The position numbers and the translations under genes are program-made. Below are positions 1 to 36,539 of a stretch of 36,539 bases of DNA, piece after piece; the stretch's first letter is position 1; every line of letters starts with the position of its first letter. The stretch spans positions 1 to 36,539 of the forward strand of contig JAZQWK010000363.1 in NCBI GenBank assembly GCA_045632325.1, in the 5' to 3' direction. The DNA is from Eubacteriales bacterium. Its GTDB lineage: Bacteria > Bacillota > Clostridia > Oscillospirales > CAG-272. The notes beneath the pieces are model-generated. The model worked only from the letters and a program-made list of their open reading frames with translations, made no database searches and was not told the origin of the DNA.

Positions 1-141
1 CTTTCGTAATACTGCCCTGCTTTATAAAAACGCCTCCGAGATAGCATATCCTGTCGTGTGCAATTCCCATCAGCAACTTGTCCCGGTCATCCAACCGGGA
101 TGTCTTTTTCTCTACAAAAGACCAGAATCCTGTACTCGCAA
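1..141. repeat. Terminal direct repeat, copy 1 (identical to 36399-36539)
   Basis: Read base by base: ctttcgtaatactgccctgc...cctgtactcgcaa occurs at both window ends. Confidence 0.97.
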
Positions 142-16118: not shown

Positions 16119-17574
16119 ATACCTTGATCGTATACTCGCCGTCTCCGTTTGTTAATTCCTCATCGTCAACCGTCACCGTGCCATTTGCTCCTGCGGCAAG
16201 CGTTGTCCCGCTTTCTACCAGTAGCCCAACCCCCCGCGCCGGAGTCGTTCCCGATTTTGTTGCTCTCGCTTCCCATTGCTGTAATGCAAGATCCGATGTG
16301 AAAGTACACACGCACTGATCGTATCCAGTCTCATCGCTGATGATTGTTCTGGACGGAGCCCCAACAGTAATCACGGGCGGGTCTCCGCTTGTACTTGCAG
16401 TAAATACGATTGTATGGTCAGCCGTAATGTTGGACACGGTATAGATATATATGTATCCAGAAACAGAATATGTGACTGTTAAAGTAGCCCCGTACACATA
16501 AATATATCTGTGCGTGGACGATGCGTTGTTTGTCATTGTGATATACAATCTCGGACTGGCAAGATCACTACTCGACCATGTTCCCATCGTCAGATTATAT
16601 GTTGCTTTGGCAACGTCCGTTGCAGATGTTACCCAGTTGTTTGCAGAACCTTTTGCCGTTGTATTGGCATACATTTGAAACGATGATGTAACACCAGATG
16701 ACGAACCGTTTCTGCTGAACTGTAACGTGGCAGAACAAGCAACGCTTTGCAATGTCGCTCCAGTTGGTAGCGTAATAGCCCCAAAATTGAAATATATCGT
16801 TCCAGTCGTGCCGCCCGCCAGATCCAGTGTCGCATATGTGCTGTTATCTGCACCGTGATACGCATTGGATATATTGGTCAGCGTAAAACTTGTATTATTA
16901 TTACTTGACGGATAAACCGCAAGGCTGTCTGATGATACTCTTGTTACCTGCGATGTAACATCTACGTTGTTATCCGTAACTGTTGGCGTAGATGAGTAAT
17001 TGTACCCTCTGGCTGTGAAGTTTTCCCCCTCAAGTACTGTTGTCGTTCCACTCGGCTCAGCACCGGATACGCTGACATCGTGGTAAACTGGTACTGTATA
17101 GGTGACATCTATCTCTGCACCGTAAATGTAAATGTAGGAAGTTGTGCTTCTGTTGCTTCTTCGGCAGTTTATCCTAATACCGAAGTTGTCTCTATACCCT
17201 TTAAGCGTGTCCCATGCAATCGTAGTATTCGTAAATGTCTTTGCCGTGGCACTTGTCGTTAATGCCGTTGTACTACCTGCGGCAGATACTTGTGTTGTAT
17301 CATTATATCCATAAATTGTACTTGTATTGCCGCCGCTGTGGGACGCTTTTATCTTGATCTCAATACTACTGACAATGGCATCATCCGGTATCGATGAAAA
17401 ATTAAACCCTCGTAAATATACATACCGTGAAGTTGTCGCCGCATTATTGTTGGTAATAGTAGCATATGTCGTACTATCAGTATTGGTAAATGCAGAACTT
17501 TCATCGCTCACCGTTAAGTATGATGAGGCGGCATTGTATAATATACTCGGAATTAACCTCGCTGTCGTTGCCAT
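16084..17574 (-). CDS. Large S/T-rich structural protein with an internally duplicated beta-domain, inserted between portal and MuF
   Basis: 496 aa. Its ATG overlaps the portal stop (TAATG). The two domains end ...TSYIYIYGAEIDVTYTV and ...THRYIYVYGATLTVTYSV. Its C-terminal domain is shared with ORF 14873-15520. Confidence 0.65.
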   Translation of the reverse strand: MATTARLIPSILYNAASSYLTVSDESSAFTNTDSTTYATITNNNAATTSRYVYLRGFNFSSIPDDAIVSSIEIKIKASHSGGNTSTIYGYNDTTQVSAAGSTTALTTSATAKTFTNTTIAWDTLKGYRDNFGIRINCRRSNRSTTSYIYIYGAEIDVTYTVPVYHDVSVSGAEPSGTTTVLEGENFTARGYNYSSTPTVTDNNVDVTSQVTRVSSDSLAVYPSSNNNTSFTLTNISNAYHGADNSTYATLDLAGGTTGTIYFNFGAITLPTGATLQSVACSATLQFSRNGSSSGVTSSFQMYANTTAKGSANNWVTSATDVAKATYNLTMGTWSSSDLASPRLYITMTNNASSTHRYIYVYGATLTVTYSVSGYIYIYTVSNITADHTIVFTASTSGDPPVITVGAPSRTIISDETGYDQCVCTFTSDLALQQWEARATKSGTTPARGVGLLVESGTTLAAGANGTVTVDDEELTNGDGEYTIKVYGQSIGGVWSE

Positions 17575-18896
17575 TATCCCTCCGGCTCGTAACGCCCTGC
17601 CTCTTCTTCAGTCGTGCGCTTAAGAATTTTATCTATCTCATCCACGTTTATGAAGGGCAAATGGTTCAAGATCGTTTCGTCATCAAGATACTGCGCCGCG
17701 CTCAGGACCATCTGCGTTTCCTCTGTGGCGTTTGTGATCCTGCTACGTTTGAATGTCGGCGCGTCTTCAATGCCGATAAGGTTTAACAATCCCTTAATAA
17801 ACTCAATGACGCACGTCTCGTATCGGTCGCACTTCAGGCTCAGGTTCTCATATGCCGCATTTATGGCTGTTGCGGTGATCGAGCCGCCAGAAATGTCCTT
17901 TGTGTCGAGTGCCATCGCGTCTTCGTACAGATCGCTCCTCAGCTTATCAAGAGCAACCTGCCGGGCGTTGTACGGCACTTCTATCGTGTGGGCTTCTGCC
18001 GTACTTCCTGCATCGTCCACGACAGCCGCTTTGACAGTCTTCATTCTTTCCACAAACTTTGCGAGATCTACGTCGTCCATGCCCCCTGCATTGGTAAGCG
18101 TCCAATATATCTGCGAAGCGTCGTCCAGATCATTAGCAAAACCGCTCTTAATTAAATCATAGCAGTCTATCCCTGACCGCAACCCTGTAAGTTCCGTCTG
18201 ACGCTCAGGATTGCCCCATAACGGAACGATAGGGAATCCGGGGTAATTCTCTCCGTCTAAAATCTCAACGCCGTCTGCTGTGGATTTCTGGACGATCTGG
18301 ACGTATGCCCTTTTCTCCTGCAATACAGTCGGCGCACCGTTGTCAAATCTGTACTCTGTATATCCGTCCTCTTCGTACAGCGTTGCCCGGAGCGGCTTGT
18401 CGTTTGCTATCTGCCAAAAACGTATACCGGCATGGATCGCGCCATCCTCTTCCCCTATCAGCGGAACAAACTCCGTGACCTTGAATACTTCCACGTGGTC
18501 AAGGTTAAAGAATCCAAAAGCAACCGCACCAACAAGAGCGTATTCTCCCGCCCTTATCAGTACGGTGTCAAAGTCCTCGCCGCCGAGTTTATCCTTTGTT
18601 GAATCTTCGTTAAATGTCACGCCATTTCCAAGCAGGTGCAAGTTTTCCTGCACGACAAACCTCTGGAAAAAGCCAGATGATACTTTGTGATTTGCAGAGA
18701 AATTATCCGGGACGGCTTTGCCGGATAATGTATATAAGAGTTTTTGGTACTGCGTTATCGTGGTATTACGTCTTCGGAAATATTCCTGCGCTATTACTGC
18801 GTCAACGTAAAGCGGTGAAGCCTTATGCTCCGCAATAGCGTTTAAGACAAACATGGGCTTGTCGGAATCCGCAATCAAATCCTGATAGGTTTTCAT
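17574..18896 (-). CDS. Portal protein (SPP1 gp6-like)
   Basis: 440 aa, immediately after TerL. AAGGGGG RBS. Confidence 0.88.
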   Translation of the reverse strand: MKTYQDLIADSDKPMFVLNAIAEHKASPLYVDAVIAQEYFRRRNTTITQYQKLLYTLSGKAVPDNFSANHKVSSGFFQRFVVQENLHLLGNGVTFNEDSTKDKLGGEDFDTVLIRAGEYALVGAVAFGFFNLDHVEVFKVTEFVPLIGEEDGAIHAGIRFWQIANDKPLRATLYEEDGYTEYRFDNGAPTVLQEKRAYVQIVQKSTADGVEILDGENYPGFPIVPLWGNPERQTELTGLRSGIDCYDLIKSGFANDLDDASQIYWTLTNAGGMDDVDLAKFVERMKTVKAAVVDDAGSTAEAHTIEVPYNARQVALDKLRSDLYEDAMALDTKDISGGSITATAINAAYENLSLKCDRYETCVIEFIKGLLNLIGIEDAPTFKRSRITNATEETQMVLSAAQYLDDETILNHLPFINVDEIDKILKRTTEEEAGRYEPEG

Positions 18897-18905
18897 CGTT
18901 CCCCC

Positions 18906-20168
18906 TTAATTCCACAGCGGTGAATACTCACTTTTTACTTTGCCATATAACAGCCTTGCCAGTGATGCGACTGTATCCGGGCAGTCATCATGCGCCGCGT
19001 CTTCAAAATAATCGCATATCTGCTCTATAAATTCTTTGTCTGTGTCTGCTGTAAATATAGCATCTTTCCATATAGCTTTCAAGTAAGTAACAATTTTCAG
19101 GTATTTGTTCTGATGTTCCGTGTACGTGATCGCCTTGATCCCCATCTTGCGCAGGTCTTTCGCAACAAACCCCTTGTCCGCGTTGTCCTCTGTATAAAGT
19201 TTGCCGCACATAAACTTTTGATAGTCTGCCAATATGTCGGCATAGCACTCCTCAACGTGCTTTCTCCTGCACCGTCCGTGGATATAATACGCTGTATCGC
19301 ACTTCCTCATAACGCACCATGCGGTGTAGTCCTCGCCATAGAACGCGCTGTCAACGTGCATAATGCCTTGCCCTACTTTTGCCGGGTCTGCGCCGGTCTG
19401 CGGGTTTTCAAATATTACGTCCTCGCTTGCGATGTGCCGCAACTCATAGTTGCAAGCAAACAAAGACGGCAACATCGTCCCCTTTATCGCTTCCAATTCT
19501 TCCGGCGGTATGATCCCGGTCGAATAACAGTCATGCCGCTCCGCATCCGGCATAATCGAGAACGCATCCTCTTTATGCCACGGTGTACCTGTATTAAATA
19601 TCTTGCCGCCTTGATTCTTTACATTCTGGAGTTCCTGATAGATCGTGATTGTGTGGTCTCGTTCCGCTTTGCTTATCCTGTCCTTGACGTTGACAATATC
19701 ATCGGTGAATATACGGTCAAAGTGTTTGCCGGTAATTGAACCGCCAAGACCGATGCCGAGTAACTGCACCGTTCCTTTTTTGTCCGTGGTTAGGTTCGTT
19801 GCGATCTCTGTCGTGGACTGCGTGCTCAATTTAAGATTGACACCGTATATGCACTGCACAAAATACAGCGTGTGCGGATCGCTCAACAGCTTTTGCACCT
19901 GCTTGACCACTTCCTTTACGTCCGCGTCAGTCTTTCGCATGAACATCGTTCGCAGGTTCGGCAAAAGAATAATCTGGATAGCCAACGCCACTGACACGCA
20001 GGTCGTTTTGTATGATCCGCGGTGACTCTGTAGCGTGTGGTCTTTCGTTCCCTGTACCATTTCTTTTATCCACTCATTATGCAAAGAGGTCAGCTTTGTA
20101 AAGCCGACCATCTTCGCAAAATCAGCGGGTCTGTTTAATAAAAAGTCAACAGCCTCTCGCCGTGTCAT
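18906..20168 (-). CDS. terL: Terminase large subunit
   Basis: 420 aa. Contains a deviant Walker A (HRGSYKTT), a Walker B-like IFTDDIVN, GTPWHKEDAF, and nuclease-domain aspartates (VDSAFYGEDYTAW, AAHDDCPD). Confidence 0.9.
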   Translation of the reverse strand: MTRREAVDFLLNRPADFAKMVGFTKLTSLHNEWIKEMVQGTKDHTLQSHRGSYKTTCVSVALAIQIILLPNLRTMFMRKTDADVKEVVKQVQKLLSDPHTLYFVQCIYGVNLKLSTQSTTEIATNLTTDKKGTVQLLGIGLGGSITGKHFDRIFTDDIVNVKDRISKAERDHTITIYQELQNVKNQGGKIFNTGTPWHKEDAFSIMPDAERHDCYSTGIIPPEELEAIKGTMLPSLFACNYELRHIASEDVIFENPQTGADPAKVGQGIMHVDSAFYGEDYTAWCVMRKCDTAYYIHGRCRRKHVEECYADILADYQKFMCGKLYTEDNADKGFVAKDLRKMGIKAITYTEHQNKYLKIVTYLKAIWKDAIFTADTDKEFIEQICDYFEDAAHDDCPDTVASLARLLYGKVKSEYSPLWN

Positions 20169-21457
20169 TATACCCTCTTCCTGTCCGCGGTTTCATGCGT
20201 CCTTTTCTGTATCGTCACGTTTTCGTTGTATCTGTATATGATGTCATTATTTTCGTCCACTCCGTCAGGAATAAGCACCTGCTCAAATAATTTGTATGGA
20301 CTCTGCCCGCGCCGTGGCGCGTTCCATAAATACCGGAGATATTCCTTCATTGTCATCTTGTCAAACTTCGCCCTCTGTTCACAGGAATTGCAGTTAAATC
20401 CCTCAGCCGCTTTATATTCAAACTCAAGGAAGTACATATCACCCTCTATGTCATTCCATCGCACGCTACCCTCTTTTTTCGCGATCTGTAACGCCGCAGA
20501 GAAATGCCCCCGGCTGTATTCCCATTCCGGTGGCAAGGCGCAACAACACGCGTTGTTTGAACACTCCTTAAAATGCGCGTCAGAGACATAGAACCTCATC
20601 CCCAACTTGTCGCAAAGGTCTTTCATGTTGCGGACGTACTTTTCTTTTATTTTCCTGTTCAGTCGGAGATACCCCGATCCGTTTGAATACTTCCTGTAGA
20701 ACTCTACAATGTCGAAACCGCAACACTCGCTTATCGTTCTGTAGTGTTCCTTTGCTTGCTTTATAGAGCGCATTTCAAGGCAGAAGAACTCTGTCGTGAC
20801 CGCTGTCGCACCGGCGTCATGCGCCGCTGTAATAAGGTCGAGATACGTCTTGTCGGACACGCCTATAATGAACGGTCTCAGGCGAATCGTCGTGCCGCCT
20901 TTGCTCAACTCATTGTATTTCCGCATAGCCTCAAGCCTTTCCCGCGGAGAGGGTACGCCGACTTCGATCTTTTTCGCGTCCTTTTCGTCAAGCGTAATAA
21001 TGCTGAATTTCACGTTCCAGTTATCCGCGCCGCGGAACAGTTCAACGTATTTCGGGTCTGAGAACACCCATGCAGACTTTGTGCTGAAGCATATTGGGTA
21101 GTTTATTTCTTTCAAGTATTTAAGTACTTCGTATGTTATTCCGTATTTCCGCTCGAACTCGTCAAACTGATCTGACAGCCCGCCGTACTGGATGGGGCGT
21201 TTTGTCTTCAGATATTCGTAGAATTGCGACCGTTTTTCCCCGCTGAATATCGCTTTTATTTTCTCCGGGTTAATAGATTTGACATCTTTATGCAGGTAGG
21301 ATTCTTTTGCCGCTCCGATCCCGCGCTGATATTGAGAAAAGCAGTACACGCAACCAAATGAACAATTGCTGTATGTATCAAGCGTAACCGGCAGACTGCA
21401 ATCTGCAATTTCCCCTGTCCAACGTGGACTGCCATAGTTTTTCTTTATTTCTTCCAT
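20168..21457 (-). CDS. Radical SAM enzyme, SplB/COG1533-like (long form, 429 aa)
   Basis: CSFGCVYC at 21341-21364 (C32-x3-C36-x2-C39). Downstream motifs YGGLSDQF, ICFSTKSAW and the Cys-rich C-terminal extension CSNNACCCALPP. Its stop overlaps the TerL ATG (TAATG). Confidence 0.8.
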   Translation of the reverse strand: MEEIKKNYGSPRWTGEIADCSLPVTLDTYSNCSFGCVYCFSQYQRGIGAAKESYLHKDVKSINPEKIKAIFSGEKRSQFYEYLKTKRPIQYGGLSDQFDEFERKYGITYEVLKYLKEINYPICFSTKSAWVFSDPKYVELFRGADNWNVKFSIITLDEKDAKKIEVGVPSPRERLEAMRKYNELSKGGTTIRLRPFIIGVSDKTYLDLITAAHDAGATAVTTEFFCLEMRSIKQAKEHYRTISECCGFDIVEFYRKYSNGSGYLRLNRKIKEKYVRNMKDLCDKLGMRFYVSDAHFKECSNNACCCALPPEWEYSRGHFSAALQIAKKEGSVRWNDIEGDMYFLEFEYKAAEGFNCNSCEQRAKFDKMTMKEYLRYLWNAPRRGQSPYKLFEQVLIPDGVDENNDIIYRYNENVTIQKRTHETADRKRV

Positions 21458-22161
21458 AGTTTCAAAGCCCCGCCGTCATAGTGTTTGTTCGGAACGAAAA
21501 AGCTGTATTCTTTCGACATCCTTTTTATTGTTTTCTGAAGTTCTCCGTTCTCGTATCTTTCTTTGCACCCACCTGCGTTCGATGTGTTCTTTGGTTTCGC
21601 GCAAGAGAAGTCATTAAAGCGCAAAGTAGTACCGCCTTGCTTTATAATGCGGCAACACAACTCGTAATCGTCAACAACCTTATACGATGTGTTAAACCTC
21701 AGCGCGGAGTTCATTATTCCTATAAACGTCCCTTGCAAAAGAACATTTATATCTGTCTTGTATCTCGCTCCGCGGATTATAACGTTGCTGTTTGCCGCGA
21801 TTCCAAATACCTGCGCGTGTATTTTTCGCGCCTCGTCTTCCATGTATTTTACATTCGACAATGCCTCCGCTGTGTTGCGCTTGAATTTTCTCTCCGTCTC
21901 GTAGTATACATTTATTCCGTATACATCATCGTCCATAAGGATTACCGGCTGACCCACATATTTAAGGATCGTGTTTCTGTTCCCCGCCGCGCAATCTGCC
22001 TCTCCGTATATTATCTCAACGTCATGCAGTTTTTTGTATGCGTCCCTATCCTCGCGTGTTTGAACAGATATAACAATGTCGTGCTTGTCAATTCCGTTCT
22101 CTAATAGCATATGCGCCGTTTTGCATTGCGGTCTCTTGTATGACGGTATTCCGAATATCAT
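21445..22161 (-). CDS. GT-A-fold glycosyltransferase-like protein with DxD motif
   Basis: 238 aa. N-terminal IFGIPSYKRP, then GNRNTIL, then DDD at 21925-21933, and a later VVDDYELCCRI. Overlaps both neighbours (ATGA upstream, 13 nt downstream). Confidence 0.6.
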   Translation of the reverse strand: MIFGIPSYKRPQCKTAHMLLENGIDKHDIVISVQTREDRDAYKKLHDVEIIYGEADCAAGNRNTILKYVGQPVILMDDDVYGINVYYETERKFKRNTAEALSNVKYMEDEARKIHAQVFGIAANSNVIIRGARYKTDINVLLQGTFIGIMNSALRFNTSYKVVDDYELCCRIIKQGGTTLRFNDFSCAKPKNTSNAGGCKERYENGELQKTIKRMSKEYSFFVPNKHYDGGALKLWKK

Positions 22162-22736
22162 TCGCCGCCCCCCATAAGTTCGTCAAAGTCATAAACCACT
22201 TTCATGGAATCCGGCTCTACGCCAAGCCACTCGCACACCTGCATTTCCTTTTCCGGCGCGTATGTAATAATAACTCTCCTACGCAAAAGGAAGTCATCGG
22301 AATGGTCATCGTATTGTTTCATCAGGTCTTCATCGAACGGTTCAGGAATGTACGGATCGTCCTCCGGCTCAAACCCAAACTTGCTCAGGTCTATGTCGTT
22401 TATGGAATCAATTTCAAGGCTCAACAATTCAACGTCAAATCCGGTATTCATTGTCAGCTTGTTATGCACGAGCGTATAGGCTTTTCTCTCCTCATCCGTC
22501 AGCCCATCCAAACGTATCACCGGCACGGTCTCTATTTCTGGCATTTCCATTACCGCCAACAGCCGTCCGTGTCCCTCAATGATCTCGTTATCGTGCCAGA
22601 TCGCAATCGGATCGTTAAAGCCGAACTCTTTTATGCTTTCCTTTATCTGCTTTACCTGTTCGGCTGTGTGAATCTTTGCGTTGTTGGCGTAGGGTTTTAG
22701 TTCTTCTTTGCTCAGGTATTCAATTTTCAGTTCCAT
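22158..22736 (-). CDS. ParB N-terminal (ParB/Srx-fold) domain protein with acidic C-terminal region
   Basis: 192 aa. LKPYANNAKIHTAEQVKQIKESIKEFGFNDPIAIWHDNEIIEGHGRLLA is the ParB-like nuclease-domain pattern. There is no HTH or methyltransferase domain after it. Confidence 0.8.
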   Translation of the reverse strand: MELKIEYLSKEELKPYANNAKIHTAEQVKQIKESIKEFGFNDPIAIWHDNEIIEGHGRLLAVMEMPEIETVPVIRLDGLTDEERKAYTLVHNKLTMNTGFDVELLSLEIDSINDIDLSKFGFEPEDDPYIPEPFDEDLMKQYDDHSDDFLLRRRVIITYAPEKEMQVCEWLGVEPDSMKVVYDFDELMGGGE

Positions 22737-23569
22737 GCAGTCCTCCTTAAATTACAGCAATCATCCGGGTTTTTGTTTACGTGTCTCTTCCAGTACTCAT
22801 ACGCCCTGCTCTCATCCTCGCATACGCTGATCTCTTTGAACTTCAGCTTGCTTATGTATTGAATCTTTTTCGACAGCGGCATATGCAAATATCCGTTCTG
22901 CTTTACGGTGTATTCAGAATAGTCTATGTCGAGCCATTTCCGTATCCATGAATTGACGCGCAAGAACTCGACAAGCACCTTGTCTATTCCCAAGGCGTTG
23001 TACGCCTCAAAATCGACATATTCTGGCATCAGCGGAGAAAGTCTTAACGAAACATCAAACCCGGCGTTCTGGAGCGTTCTGGCGGCTTGTACGCGATCCT
23101 GCGGCTTGCTCGCTTTCTCCATTCTGCGGCATATTTCCTCGTCCAGTGTCGTCACCGTTATCTGGATGTGTGCAAGGTCTTTGTCCATGATCTCGATGTA
23201 TTCCGGGTCTGCTATCATCGCGGATTTTGTCACAATCAAATACGGCACTTTACGCCGGTTCAGCAAACGGATCGTCTTGTATGTGTTGCGGTACAATCTC
23301 TCTACCGGCTGAAGACAATCCGTCATGCCGCCAAGCCTTACAACCTCGCCTCTTTTCACTTTGCGTATTGCCTTGCCGATGTCTGCGGTGCTTGCTACCG
23401 CCGGTCTTTGCGGATTCCATAATCCGCGGAAACTCAACAGGCTTTTTGCATAGCAATATGAACAGTCATGCTGACAGCCGCATCCGTACGTATCGATACG
23501 TGTCGGATAATGGCATTTCTCGCCCTCGTTGCCTTGTACGGTTTTGCCTACGCTCTTAAAGTCTTTCAT
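22727..23569 (-). CDS. Radical SAM enzyme, SplB/COG1533-like (short form, 280 aa)
   Basis: CQHDCSYC at 23453-23476 (C32-x3-C36-x2-C39). Motifs GGMTDCLQP, LIVTKSAMI and VSLRLSPLMP follow the spore-photoproduct-lyase-family layout. Its ATG directly abuts the TerS-like stop. Confidence 0.8.
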   Translation of the reverse strand: MKDFKSVGKTVQGNEGEKCHYPTRIDTYGCGCQHDCSYCYAKSLLSFRGLWNPQRPAVASTADIGKAIRKVKRGEVVRLGGMTDCLQPVERLYRNTYKTIRLLNRRKVPYLIVTKSAMIADPEYIEIMDKDLAHIQITVTTLDEEICRRMEKASKPQDRVQAARTLQNAGFDVSLRLSPLMPEYVDFEAYNALGIDKVLVEFLRVNSWIRKWLDIDYSEYTVKQNGYLHMPLSKKIQYISKLKFKEISVCEDESRAYEYWKRHVNKNPDDCCNLRRTAWN

Positions 23570-23908
23570 TCATTCTCCAAGAACCATCTGCTCCACTTCG
23601 TCAATAACTTCCTGCGTGACCTCTGCCACCATTACCTTTTCCACGGGCTTCTGCCCGGAAGAATCCCGGACCACTTCAAACGCTCGCGTATCACCTTTCA
23701 AGGCTTTCTCCATCTGCTTTATTGCGATAGCCTCAGCCCCGGTGACGGTCTCTCCGTTCTTGCCCTTGTACTCTTTTTCCAGTAACGCCTCCAACGCCAT
23801 GCGGATGTCTCTCTTCCTGCGTCTGGCTTCTCCGCTCTTGATCCCGCCTCTCTTCGCTTCTTCAAGGCTTAACTGATATTCTCCCGGGCGTAGATTTTGC
23901 TCATTCAT
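23570..23908 (-). CDS. Putative small terminase / basic DNA-binding protein
   Basis: 112 aa. Basic N-terminus KRGGIKSGEARRRKRD and acidic C-terminus. First gene of the packaging operon. GAGGTG RBS. Confidence 0.45.
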   Translation of the reverse strand: MNEQNLRPGEYQLSLEEAKRGGIKSGEARRRKRDIRMALEALLEKEYKGKNGETVTGAEAIAIKQMEKALKGDTRAFEVVRDSSGQKPVEKVMVAEVTQEVIDEVEQMVLGE

Positions 23909-25561: not shown

Positions 25562-26236
25562 TTACTGCATCGCAATCACTTTCGCTACAAGAGCCTTATG
25601 CTCTTCATCGTTTCGTTGCGGAAAATTGCCGAACTTCCCAGAATTGCCGTATTTGCTTGCTCGCGGGTTGCTCCGCTCTTTCACCGCATTGATTACCCAT
25701 CTGCGGATCGCCAAATTATGTGATTTGCTTTTATATCCTTTTTCCTCAATGTATTCATCCAGTAGTTTAACAGCCGCTTCGGTCATGTACATTCCGTAAT
25801 CACCGATCAGCCGGTCAAACTCCGTGTCGGTCAGTAAAACATGGCTGTACTCGCCGTGCGTGTGCTTTGGTTCTTTCTTTTTCACATCATTATCATTCTC
25901 ATTTTCATAATCATTATCATACTCATTATCATTATCGGCTTTTTTCGGTTGCGTTCGGTTTTCAGAAAACCGTTCGGTTTTTTCGGTTTTCTTCGGTCTG
26001 CCGCCTTTCTGTCCGTTTTCCCGGTTCGTCCTGCACTTTTCCTCGTACTTTTCCGCGTTCTCTTCCAGATCGGTCTTGATAAAGGCGAACGCCATCTCTG
26101 TCATGGCATCCATTTCCGGAAGTTCTTCTTCGCGTTCGTGGTTAAGGATTGCGGTAAACAGGACTCCGCGCTGTTCCATGTTGAGCATCTGTATCTGCTT
26201 CGCATATTTCGTATACAAGATAAAACTCCCTTTCAT
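25562..26236 (-). CDS. Replisome organiser (DnaD-like C-terminal domain)
   Basis: 224 aa from ATG 26236. N-terminus FILYTKYAKQIQMLNMEQRGVLFTAIL, a low-complexity D/N/E linker, and C-terminus VLLTDTEFDRL...LDEYIEEKGYKSKSHNLAIRRW. Confidence 0.7.
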   Translation of the reverse strand: MKGSFILYTKYAKQIQMLNMEQRGVLFTAILNHEREEELPEMDAMTEMAFAFIKTDLEENAEKYEEKCRTNRENGQKGGRPKKTEKTERFSENRTQPKKADNDNEYDNDYENENDNDVKKKEPKHTHGEYSHVLLTDTEFDRLIGDYGMYMTEAAVKLLDEYIEEKGYKSKSHNLAIRRWVINAVKERSNPRASKYGNSGKFGNFPQRNDEEHKALVAKVIAMQ

Positions 26237-26367
26237 TCCTGTTCCTCGTCTTTTCGTGCCTTGCGCTCCCAATATTCCTCGATCTGTTTCCTGCGCTTTT
26301 CCTTGTTTTTGCGGTAATATTCCCGCTGATATTCTCTGCGCTTTTCCAATGCACTTTCTGATAACAT
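26233..26367 (-). CDS. 44-aa basic helical protein, below the ORF-track cutoff
   Basis: GGAGGTGA RBS before ATG 26367. Translation MLSESALEKRREYQREYYRKNKEKRRKQIEEYWERKARKDEEQE. Its TGA overlaps the ATG of the replisome organiser. Confidence 0.5.
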   Translation of the reverse strand: MLSESALEKRREYQREYYRKNKEKRRKQIEEYWERKARKDEEQE

Positions 26368-29822: not shown

Positions 29823-30140
29823 TTACGCGATCGCTTCTACCTGTGACTGGCTGAAAAACGCCGCCGTCTTCATAAACATCTTGCTCTCGTCTTCGCCACG
29901 CTCTTCGTTGTGCTTCGTGGTATGCTTCCAGATCGTAATCTTTGCCACCGCTTTCTCCCCTTTCGCTACCTGATAGCCGAACATCTTCCATGTCTGGTAG
30001 GTGTGGATCGGCTCGGTCTCCTGCACCGTAATCTTTTTGCCGTCCGGCATTTCCATCTCGAATGTCCTGCCGGTGTAGCCGATCTTGCCCTCTTTCGCCA
30101 ACTCCTGCCCTGCGTTAAAAATGATCTGTGCGTTTGTCAT
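29823..30140 (-). CDS. ArdC-N-like (DUF1738-like) putative ssDNA-binding protein
   Basis: 105 aa. YQTWKMFGYQVAKGEKAVAKITIWK and a C-terminal AAFFSQSQVE resemble the ArdC N-domain pattern (W-x-T-x-x-Q...G-x-V-x-KGEK ... FN-x-x-Q). Confidence 0.45.
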   Translation of the reverse strand: MTNAQIIFNAGQELAKEGKIGYTGRTFEMEMPDGKKITVQETEPIHTYQTWKMFGYQVAKGEKAVAKITIWKHTTKHNEERGEDESKMFMKTAAFFSQSQVEAIA

Positions 30141-36283: not shown

Positions 36284-36539
36284 GCCTTGTCTCCTATCGG
36301 CAGTTTTCCCACCTCTTCCATGATCTTCTTCGCCGTTCCATTGCCGCCAAGTTTCCTGTACGGCTCGTATAAGTAGTCATGCAGGTTTTCATATTCATCT
36401 TTCGTAATACTGCCCTGCTTTATAAAAACGCCTCCGAGATAGCATATCCTGTCGTGTGCAATTCCCATCAGCAACTTGTCCCGGTCATCCAACCGGGATG
36501 TCTTTTTCTCTACAAAAGACCAGAATCCTGTACTCGCAA
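36280..36539 (-). CDS. 3' part of the wrap-around membrane-anchored protein (truncated by the window end; true ATG is at position 181 of the circular map)
   Basis: The frame is open to the window edge. The track's 36492 start is a TTG codon. Overlaps the holin ATG (ATGA). Confidence 0.7.
   Translation of the reverse strand, partial: ASTGFWSFVEKKTSRLDDRDKLLMGIAHDRICYLGGVFIKQGSITKDEYENLHDYLYEPYRKLGGNGTAKKIMEEVGKLPIGDKA
36399..36539. repeat. Terminal direct repeat, copy 2 (identical to 1-141)
   Basis: Exact match to bases 1-141. It lies inside a coding frame that continues across the junction. Confidence 0.97.

Follow-up and report, generated by a model that had tools for sequence, protein, structure and literature searches.

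Four genes between the terminase subunit genes

We analyzed a 36,539-nucleotide (nt) stretch of DNA (contig JAZQWK010000363.1 of the Eubacteriales bacterium assembly GCA_045632325.1; hereafter, the window) and examined a candidate DNA-modification cassette of four genes at positions 20168–23569, which encode two radical S-adenosylmethionine (SAM) proteins (rSAM-A and rSAM-B), a ParB/Srx-like protein and a glycosyltransferase (GT). The cassette and the adjoining packaging genes are arranged as follows, with protein lengths in amino acids (aa).

23570–23908, minus strand: TerS-like gene (112 aa), directly upstream of the cassette
22727–23569, minus strand: rSAM-A (280 aa), a radical SAM protein with a fold like that of spore photoproduct lyase (SPL)
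22158–22736, minus strand: ParB/Srx-like protein (192 aa)
21445–22161, minus strand: TAGT-family GT-A-type glycosyltransferase (238 aa), in a variable tailoring slot
20168–21457, minus strand: rSAM-B (429 aa), a radical SAM protein and the conserved core enzyme of the cassette
18906–20168, minus strand: TerL, the terminase large subunit (phrog_38, 6.4e-65; NCBIfam termin_lrg_T7, 4.5e-20)
17574–18896, minus strand: SPP1-type portal (Pfam SPP1_portal, 117.9 bits)

The original prediction, which was made from this sequence, had described a four-gene module abutting or overlapping its neighbors between a TerS-like gene and TerL, and the open reading frames (ORFs), the strand and the junction sizes were all as described: the junctions from the TerS-like gene through rSAM-A, ParB, GT and rSAM-B to TerL measure 0, 10, 4, 13 and 1 nt, the start of TerL overlapping the stop of rSAM-B by 1 nt. 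It had also called the module co-translated with the packaging motor, which is too strong. Because the spacing is tight and a consensus scan found no convincing terminator inside the gene block (promoter and terminator counts were about those of shuffled sequence), the arrangement fits co-transcription or translational coupling only, and co-transcription of the cassette with the terminase is plausible. The TerS-like gene scored 25.8 bits against Pfam DUF5681, slightly under the gathering score of 27.5, and matched phrog_2412 (1.2e-13); its homologues with 64% identity directly precede TerL in loci L033 and L034, and a DUF5681 gene also precedes TerL in L154.

An exact direct repeat of 141 bp occupies the two ends of the window (1–141 and 36399–36539), which shows the window to be a complete phage genome of ∼36.4 kb, circular or with terminal redundancy. 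It encodes a P22-type coat protein, the SPP1 portal, an endolysin with CHAP, GH25 and CW_7 domains, ERF and RusA. In Pfam scans of essentially all ORFs of this complete genome, TET/JBP, DNA methyltransferase, thymidylate-synthase-type hydroxymethylase, QueC/D/E, base kinase and DNA polymerase were all absent, which bears out the earlier statement that no other base-modifying enzyme could be recognized.

Two paralogous radical SAM proteins

Both radical SAM proteins carry a CxxxCxxC motif at the same residues, C32/C36/C39 (rSAM-A, nt 23453–23476; rSAM-B, nt 21341–21364), as had been noted before. A profile–profile comparison using hhalign aligned the two over 249 columns (probability 98.4%, 27% identity), and the common motifs extended past the cluster loop to include a C-terminal Cys-Cys pair. 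The shared Cys positions are thus not due to chance, because rSAM-A and rSAM-B are paralogues. Of 58 diverse relatives of rSAM-B, at least 93% retained the CxxxCxxC motif, and the residues conserved family-wide were C32, C36, C39, C305 and C306.

We compared both proteins with curated families and known structures. rSAM-A scored 62.7 bits against Pfam Radical_SAM (PF04055), above the gathering score of 29.5. Among NCBIfam models, the best similarity of both proteins was to the PA0069 family (rSAM-A, 2e-26, 92.9 bits; rSAM-B, 2e-21, 76.3 bits), followed by radical SAM mobile pair protein B (3e-18) and Rv2578c for rSAM-A and by Rv2578c (1.9e-14) for rSAM-B. All these scores were far below the respective cut-offs, and the curated cut-off of the PA0069-family model (NF033668; 360 bits) was missed by both proteins. 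Both also matched phrog_13321, the function of which is unannotated. Against the SPL model (TIGR04070, equivalog cut-off 400 bits), rSAM-A reached 23 bits, a weak similarity short of the cut-off, and rSAM-B had no match in the NCBIfam search.

In Foldseek searches with AlphaFold 2 models (pLDDT 84 for rSAM-A and 81.4 for rSAM-B), the best matches of both proteins were all radical SAM enzymes (probability 1.00), in agreement with the TIM-barrel fold of this superfamily. The five best Protein Data Bank (PDB) matches of rSAM-A were all SPL (E 3e-6, TMq 0.56–0.60). Those of rSAM-B were generic radical SAM barrels (LipA, PFL-AE, Mmp10), and only generic radical SAM matches were obtained for it from PDB and BFVD. 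The SPL-specific claim for this protein rests on its paralogy with rSAM-A. At the sequence level, no useful PDB relatives were found for rSAM-B (single sequence or profile), for rSAM-A or for the ADDT-like family described below. The BFVD structural neighbors of rSAM-B include the uncharacterized radical SAM proteins A0A068EMR5 of Bacillus phage CP-51 and A0A217EQP0 of phage Goe2, two Bacillus phages with DNA that contains 5-hydroxymethyluracil (5-hmU).

No other gene of the cassette is nearly as well conserved as rSAM-B. Homologues of rSAM-B formed 1987 clusters at 90% identity (E < 1e-5), at least 120 of which were at least 75% identical to it, and 180 clusters at 50% identity (E < 1e-30, among 1.84 billion representative proteins), many of them fusions. 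The rSAM-A family is very large, with more than 5400 clusters. rSAM-B has a C-terminal extension of ∼120 aa (residues ∼310–429, window positions 20168–20530) that is absent from rSAM-A; the extension is predicted to form several helices followed by a beta-hairpin, its residues W378 and N379 are conserved, and it could be a winged-helix-type DNA-binding domain. Inteins or LAGLIDADG homing endonuclease domains were seen to interrupt some of the rSAM-B homologues (P0127, P0135 and P0138).

The TAGT-family glycosyltransferase and the ParB-like protein

The protein originally called GT-A-like, with a DDD motif, proved to be a full-length member of the TAGT family. It scored 44.4 bits against Pfam TAGT (PF20691; gathering score 27.5) over model positions 5–205 of 205 and matched phrog_842 (1.5e-19), its DDD (D77-D78-D79, nt 21925–21933) corresponds to the GT-A DxD motif, and precomputed annotation assigned PF20691 to the window GT and to most of its homologues. 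Even its nearest homologue shares no more than 49% identity. When IMG/VR was scanned for exact words of the window GT, nothing was obtained, because the GT is too divergent, and its relatives were recovered through the rSAM-B loci and the protein database. Three of them (P0392, P0407 and P0413, with 49%, 35% and 32% identity) all lie in cassettes composed of ParB, GT, a radical SAM protein of 431–450 aa and terminase. The TET/JBP dioxygenase partner expected of a TAGT protein was found by Pfam neither in the complete window nor in the annotated relatives; the partner here is rSAM-B.

The ParB-like protein matched PHROG ParB families (1e-47 to 1e-17), among them phrog_620 (2.8e-47), and the N-terminus of phrog_498, annotated as ‘DNA methyltransferase’ (1.1e-39). 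Its Pfam ParB_N (PF02195) score of 19.8 bits was under the gathering score of 26.3, which is exceeded by homologues in related cassettes (38.6 bits in L145 and 33.8 bits in L143). The identity of cassette ParBs is ∼30–60%. An alignment of 16 of them showed an acidic linker that joins a nucleotide-binding-type domain to a small C-terminal domain (RRVIITY...VVYD), and no helix-turn-helix. Three residues of the G55-H56-G57-R58 box of the window protein (G55, H56 and R58) were invariant in this alignment (GxxR, Box II-type). The earlier description of a stand-alone ParB N-terminal domain was thus too narrow, since the linker and the C-terminal domain are also present.

A scan of IMG/VR for this ParB subfamily revealed the same domain in three further settings. 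First, N6/N4 DNA methyltransferases carried it as a fused domain, the fusion genes lying directly before TerS/TerL. Second, a ParB 71–73% identical to that of the window over the aligned N-terminal ∼120 residues was found beside QueC, QueE-like radical SAM and DpdA-like genes; two such loci (L054:5001–7765 and L055:5001–8006), which combine this ParB with a DpdA-like gene, QueC (203 bits), a QueE-like radical SAM protein and a YhhQ-like transporter, look like a 7-deazaguanine DNA-modification cluster that uses the ParB subfamily of the window. Third, it was found beside a strong TAGT in enterobacterial Rac-like prophages (L074–L106, e.g. L085:4992–6708; E. coli hits H6–H10), where ynaK (ParB/Srx) is followed by a TAGT gene scoring 120.8 bits and annotated as ‘hypothetical protein’. 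This ynaK–TAGT pair sits directly upstream of TerS/TerL and is present in 889–1580 of 5426 complete E. coli genomes.

Since the subfamily is fused or adjacent to such varied modification enzymes, it appears to serve quite generally as a partner for enzymes that modify DNA after replication. Among phage thymine dioxygenases, one subclass needs a ParB of like layout to act on double-stranded DNA, and the neighborhoods of T-dioxygenases contain GTs (31%), ParBs (27%) and terminases (19%) (PMC13229309). By analogy, the ParB-like protein of the window is predicted to be an activator or DNA-loading partner of rSAM-B. The ParB-dependent thymine dioxygenase (PMC13229309) is a better precedent than the DpdB protein originally cited.

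Conservation of the cassette and its variable tailoring slot

We found 47 IMG/VR contigs encoding rSAM-B homologues (56–79% identity), of which 39 with at least 2.5 kb of upstream sequence were used for the analysis of synteny. A ParB homologue was located just upstream of rSAM-B in all 39 loci. Between the two, a TAGT-type GT was found in 28 loci (including three in which it shares one ORF with rSAM-B), and in 7 of the 39 the GT was replaced by other tailoring genes, namely a 5-hydroxymethyldeoxyuridine (5-hmdU) DNA kinase (HMUDK) and/or an amino acid:DNA transferase (ADDT). In five loci, ParB directly abutted rSAM-B with no tailoring gene, and the backbone was the same as that of GT-containing relatives. 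The cassette was nearly always immediately upstream of TerS/TerL, although the terminases fall in several unrelated clusters. Linkage of ParB, GT and rSAM-B near terL, which had been proposed as a check, was thus observed across dozens of otherwise different phages. Two features of the original prediction require modification. The cassette does adjoin packaging genes, but its interposition between TerS and TerL is particular to the window, relatives usually having it upstream of TerS. Likewise, the linkage of ParB, GT and rSAM-B is conserved, but the unit consists of ParB and rSAM-B with a variable slot, rSAM-A being optional. We rejected the possibility that the four genes form one obligate unit, as rSAM-A was found in only 7 of the 39 rSAM-B loci and also occurs without rSAM-B.

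The replacement of the GT was examined further. Loci L001, L023, L041, L044 and L154 contain an HMUDK-type gene and an ADDT gene in its place. Pfam ADDT (PF18724, ‘amino acid:DNA transferase’) gave 30–36 bits (gathering score 26.2) in 5 of 6 members tested, and of seven members scanned with Pfam HMUDK_HMUD1 (PF18748, ‘5-hmdU DNA kinase’), four exceeded the gathering score; Pfam detected neither family in the window. The order in L154 is rSAM-A (66% identity), ParB, HMUDK-like, ADDT, rSAM-B, SAM-synthetase-like, DUF5681 TerS, TerL (52% identity) and SPP1 portal, which repeats the architecture of the window itself. Other occupants of the slot were a HAD-plus-kinase-like fusion, a second TAGT together with a radical SAM-SPASM protein, and a PIG-L sugar deacetylase after the TAGT. 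The precomputed Pfam annotation of L145–L158 contained no TET/JBP, methyltransferase or thymidylate-synthase homologue. TAGT-type GTs, 5-hmdU DNA kinases and amino acid:DNA transferases act on 5-hydroxymethylpyrimidine that is already in DNA (PMC8989533, PMC5889632).

Tailoring domains were also fused to rSAM-B. Pfam identified TAGT–rSAM-B fusions (P0121, P0125 and P0152), an rSAM-B–TAGT fusion with an intein (P0138), a P-loop kinase–rSAM-B–TAGT fusion present on at least 24 contigs (P0133) and an rSAM-B–FkbM methyltransferase fusion (P0126). Two of these forms are located in replication modules: P0133 is preceded there by an ADDT gene (77.8 bits), and P0121, which is preceded by ParB, lies between primase and DNA polymerase III alpha.

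In many relatives, rSAM-B is followed by a truncated SAM-synthetase-like gene (L002:5244–6038, L154:11353–12141, L157:8062–8871 and others). Its product of ∼265 aa matched the MetK N-terminal domain (48.5 bits) and phrog_1569 (2e-70), and the gene is absent from the window. Such neighbors fit a stoichiometric consumption of SAM by rSAM-B.

Where rSAM-A occurs without rSAM-B, it again lies beside DNA-modification genes. In L134 (4992–9266), an N6/N4 DNA methyltransferase and a PAPS-reductase-like (possibly DndC-like) protein come next, with a C5 cytosine methyltransferase ∼0.7 kb beyond the latter; this region resembles a further island of several DNA-modification enzymes ahead of packaging genes. 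Elsewhere rSAM-A adjoins a methyltransferase (L142), a ParB–methyltransferase fusion (L143) or ParB and DpdA-like genes (L135 and L141). We accordingly regard rSAM-A as an accessory and independently mobile gene of the same DNA-modification hot spot upstream of the terminase.

Searches of 50,697 GenBank phage records gave no match for the DNA of the module or for the GT protein, and five weak matches for the rSAM-B protein (21–27% identity), all in uncultured human-faecal phages. The metagenome-assembled genomes (MAGs) carrying the cassette were labeled Lachnospiraceae, Clostridium, Bacillota, Victivallis and goat-ileum bin. In the early or replication region of the window itself, we noted a short ORF with an ArdC N-terminal (anti-restriction) match (25.5 bits) and a DUF6291 protein (101 bits), at 29823–30140 and 25562–26272, respectively.

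A putative oxygen-independent route to 5-hydroxymethyluracil

The gene content, linkage, fusions and family assignments observed here indicate that the cassette is, with high probability, a DNA-modification system. The core idea of the original prediction, i.e. an undescribed modification of polymer DNA that is begun by radical SAM chemistry, followed by glycosylation and expressed with the packaging genes, is likewise strongly supported by comparative evidence, namely the linkage, the fusions, the exchange of genes in the slot and the presence of the ParB subfamily in methyltransferase fusions and beside QueC/QueE-type clusters. We further propose, with a confidence slightly better than even, that rSAM-B is the initiating enzyme, which would create the hydroxyl acceptor on a pyrimidine methyl group. 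We propose this because the pair of ParB and rSAM-B is invariant, because the downstream enzymes are interchangeable and specific for 5-hydroxymethylpyrimidines, because Pfam shows no further enzyme for hydroxylation or hydroxymethylation in the complete genome, and because some cassettes consist of ParB and rSAM-B alone. The most parsimonious reaction would be the conversion of thymine to 5-hmU in double-stranded DNA. The best explanation of the locus, which we favor by a modest degree over all others combined, may thus be a post-replicative hypermodification cassette expressed with the packaging genes, in which rSAM-B and ParB would make 5-hmU and the GT would glycosylate it. More tentatively, and with slightly less than even confidence, rSAM-B may be the first oxygen-independent DNA 5-methylpyrimidine hydroxylase, a ParB-assisted functional replacement of the TET/JBP-type dioxygenases.

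We infer DNA as the substrate, thymine as the target, a hydroxymethyl product, a role for ParB and an anaerobic rationale, and the following mechanism would be compatible with them. The ParB-like protein would load or activate rSAM-B on double-stranded phage DNA, and rSAM-B would cleave SAM at its [4Fe-4S] cluster to yield a 5΄-deoxyadenosyl radical that takes a hydrogen from the C5-methyl group of thymine. The resulting thymine allylic radical would lose one electron by oxidation and then capture water, giving 5-hmU in DNA without O2; the C305/C306 pair, together with C20, C226 and C282, is a candidate auxiliary redox or nucleophilic site. The TAGT-family GT would then add a sugar to the new hydroxyl, resulting in a base-J-like glycosyl-hmU. 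In sibling phages, the same core of ParB and rSAM-B may feed a 5-hmdU DNA kinase and an amino acid:DNA transferase, and others may leave the base undecorated.

The thymine allylic radical is an accepted intermediate of SPL. Radical SAM chemistry on DNA has a precedent: the closest structures of rSAM-A are SPL, rSAM-B is its paralogue, and a radical SAM enzyme that resembles SPL, M6 gp53, has been proven to hypermodify DNA (PMC8989533). The presumed hosts are gut anaerobes, which fits the idea that a radical SAM enzyme stands in for an O2-dependent dioxygenase where O2 is unavailable.

Several points weigh against this proposal. All the evidence is computational, comprising sequence comparison and predicted models, and most related contigs were inspected over ±5–10 kb only. 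With regard to rSAM-B, its Pfam Radical_SAM score was 29.1 bits, 0.4 bits short of the gathering score of 29.5 (the homologues P0124, P0125, P0126, P0128 and P0133 exceed it at 32–43 bits), and SPL was not among the top 50 PDB Foldseek matches of its model. For a radical SAM enzyme that hydroxylates a methyl group on DNA with oxygen from water, we know of no characterized precedent. With regard to the tailoring enzymes, the HMUDK matches barely exceeded the threshold, and neither rSAM-B nor a 5mYOX/dioxygenase gene was found near the ynaK–TAGT pairs of E. coli. A TAGT is therefore not always a sign of a neighboring hydroxylase, and TAGT acceptors may be broader than 5-hydroxymethylpyrimidine. 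Finally, the GenBank phage records contained no cultured phage with a homologue of the cassette, and the argument that the hosts are gut anaerobes rests on six MAG labels.

Alternative explanations

An unlikely explanation, although the strongest of the alternatives, is that the cassette modifies DNA while rSAM-B makes another primary modification or targets a base other than thymine; examples would be radical methylation or alkylation, hydroxylation elsewhere, or action on cytosine or 5-methylcytosine, with the GT, kinase or transferase acting on the product. In favor of this reading, rSAM-B has its own conserved Cys pair and no close structural homologue; the fusion to an FkbM methyltransferase points in the same direction, and so do the E. 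coli ParB–TAGT pairs, which suggest that TAGT acceptors may exceed 5-hydroxymethylpyrimidines. However, TAGT, HMUDK and ADDT represent three independent classes of 5-hydroxymethylpyrimidine enzymes that are fused or adjacent to rSAM-B, and the only pathways in which HMUDK and ADDT are known are those of 5-hmdU (PMC8989533).

It is distinctly less probable that rSAM-B is a late tailoring enzyme, either an isomerase like M6 gp53 or a sugar-modifying enzyme, acting after another enzyme has made the hydroxymethyl base. M6 gp53, the sole characterized DNA-hypermodifying radical SAM enzyme, is SPL-like and does act late (PMC8989533), and some cassettes contain additional radical SAM-SPASM genes. However, Pfam identified no earlier-acting enzyme in the complete genome of the window, rSAM-B is invariant and the most conserved of the genes although the tailoring genes vary or are missing, and it accompanies chemically unrelated routes, namely those leading to sugar and amino-acid adducts. 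These observations favor an initiating role for rSAM-B.

The original prediction had offered as an alternative a repair toolkit, in which the radical SAM proteins are SP-lyase-type repair enzymes for phage DNA and ParB is a DNA-binding helper. We consider this quite improbable. The best structural matches of rSAM-A are SPL, some sources name the radical SAM homologues ‘DNA repair photolyase’, and there is a weak profile similarity to the SPL model. However, the resemblance is confined to rSAM-A and to its fold; the 23 bits that it scored compare with an SPL cut-off of 400, and rSAM-B has no match to the SPL model. Repair also leaves the GT and kinase fusions and the ADDT and HMUDK neighbors unexplained, and Victivallis hosts are not known to form spores. 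For rSAM-A by itself, both repair and a separate DNA-directed radical step are possible roles.

Least probable of all is a substrate other than DNA, such as a virion protein (terminase or portal) or a component of the host cell envelope, since the location of the cassette among structural and packaging genes, and the fact that GT-A enzymes and radical SAM maturases commonly work on proteins or glycans, are outweighed by associated families that are all DNA-directed (ParB, TAGT, HMUDK, ADDT and ParB–DNA methyltransferase fusions) and by the two fusion forms in replication modules among primase, DNA polymerase III or sliding clamp. A role in peptide maturation or in the cell wall was rejected: profile searches (Pfam, PHROG and NCBIfam), which had been proposed as a check, placed the proteins in no peptide-maturase, cofactor-maturase or cell-wall family, and every partner is DNA-directed.

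Novelty and implications

To our knowledge, 5-hydroxymethylpyrimidines in DNA arise either through O2-dependent TET/JBP-type dioxygenases or through pre-replicative thymidylate-synthase homologues. The latter route needs a dedicated polymerase and nucleotide pool. Full-text literature searches found no radical SAM enzyme linked to 5-hmU formation, TAGT or ParB, although the TAGT-defining study (Iyer et al. 2013, NAR) may contain an earlier in-silico mention, and radical SAM enzymes do not come up in the papers on ParB/5mYOX and on GTs. Hypermodification of pyrimidines after replication, with ParB as a partner, is thus known, and what would be new, as far as gene content and linkage can indicate, is an initiating enzyme from a different superfamily with a different cofactor logic.

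If the proposal is true, it would represent new enzymology, an anaerobic counterpart of a dioxygenase in the manner of HemN/HemF or NrdD/NrdAB, and it would explain how small temperate-type phages of strict anaerobes can hypermodify their DNA. Thousands of gut and rumen phages would then make 5-hmU, base-J-like glycosyl-hmU and amino-acid–thymine adducts post-replicatively under strict anoxia and, given ∼2000 clusters of rSAM-B at 90% identity, a large part of the phage DNA in gut and rumen would be non-canonical. Such DNA would affect evasion of restriction and CRISPR, bias in virome sequencing and nanopore base-calling. The enzyme might also provide an O2-free tool for site-selective functionalization of thymine, and ParB-fold proteins, which are emerging as partners of enzymes that modify DNA, would gain a wider role.

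Comparison with known systems

We compared the cassette with known systems. The best NCBIfam similarity of both radical SAM proteins was to the PA0069, Rv2578c and ‘radical SAM mobile pair protein B’ families (NF033668, NF038135 and TIGR04470), which are uncharacterized SplB-like radical SAM proteins, some of them on mobile elements; neither protein is a member, because the scores are 4- to 13-fold below the cut-offs. SplB itself (TIGR04070; PDB 4FHC–4FHG) shares with both proteins the same broad COG1533-like profile neighborhood, is the best structural match of rSAM-A, and acts by radical SAM chemistry on the thymine methyl group in duplex DNA, as is predicted for the cassette. It differs in that the scores are far below the family cut-off, in that rSAM-B has a C-terminal region of ∼120 aa and the CC pair, and in that the genomic context points to modification and not to repair.

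With regard to the predicted product, the kinetoplastid base J pathway (the thymidine hydroxylases JBP1/2 and the glucosyltransferase JGT) follows the same order from thymine to 5-hmU to glycosyl-hmU that is predicted here, although it is eukaryotic, its hydroxylase is unrelated (a dioxygenase as compared with a radical SAM enzyme), and the product of the cassette is a prediction only. The thymidine pathway of phages M6, ViI and PaMx11 comprises a dUMP hydroxymethylase, 5-HMUDK, an amino acid:DNA transferase and the SPL-like isomerase gp53 (PMC8989533, PMC5889632). It likewise employs an SPL-related radical SAM enzyme on modified thymine, and 5-HMUDK and ADDT occupy the slot in sibling cassettes. 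However, in that pathway a thymidylate-synthase homologue supplies 5-hmdU prior to replication, the phages are large and lytic and encode a polymerase of their own, and the radical SAM step comes late, whereas the radical SAM enzyme of the cassette is the invariant core and the window has neither hydroxymethylase nor polymerase.

Also among the closest known systems are the ParB-dependent 5mYOX/TET-JBP pathways (O'Toole et al., PNAS 2026, PMC13229309; Burke et al. 2021, PMC8256090; Pyle et al., bioRxiv 10.1101/2023.12.21.572611). Like these pathways, the cassette is predicted to act after replication on polymer DNA, its ParB consists of a nucleotide-binding domain, a linker and a C-terminal domain without a DNA-binding domain, and TAGT/GT-A GTs, kinases, and HAD/APH-type and O-methyltransferase tailoring genes are found in this setting, often near the terminase. 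Unlike them, the cassette contains no Fe/2-oxoglutarate dioxygenase; its presumed hosts are anaerobes, and in the place of the dioxygenase stands a radical SAM enzyme, which needs SAM and a reductant instead of O2.

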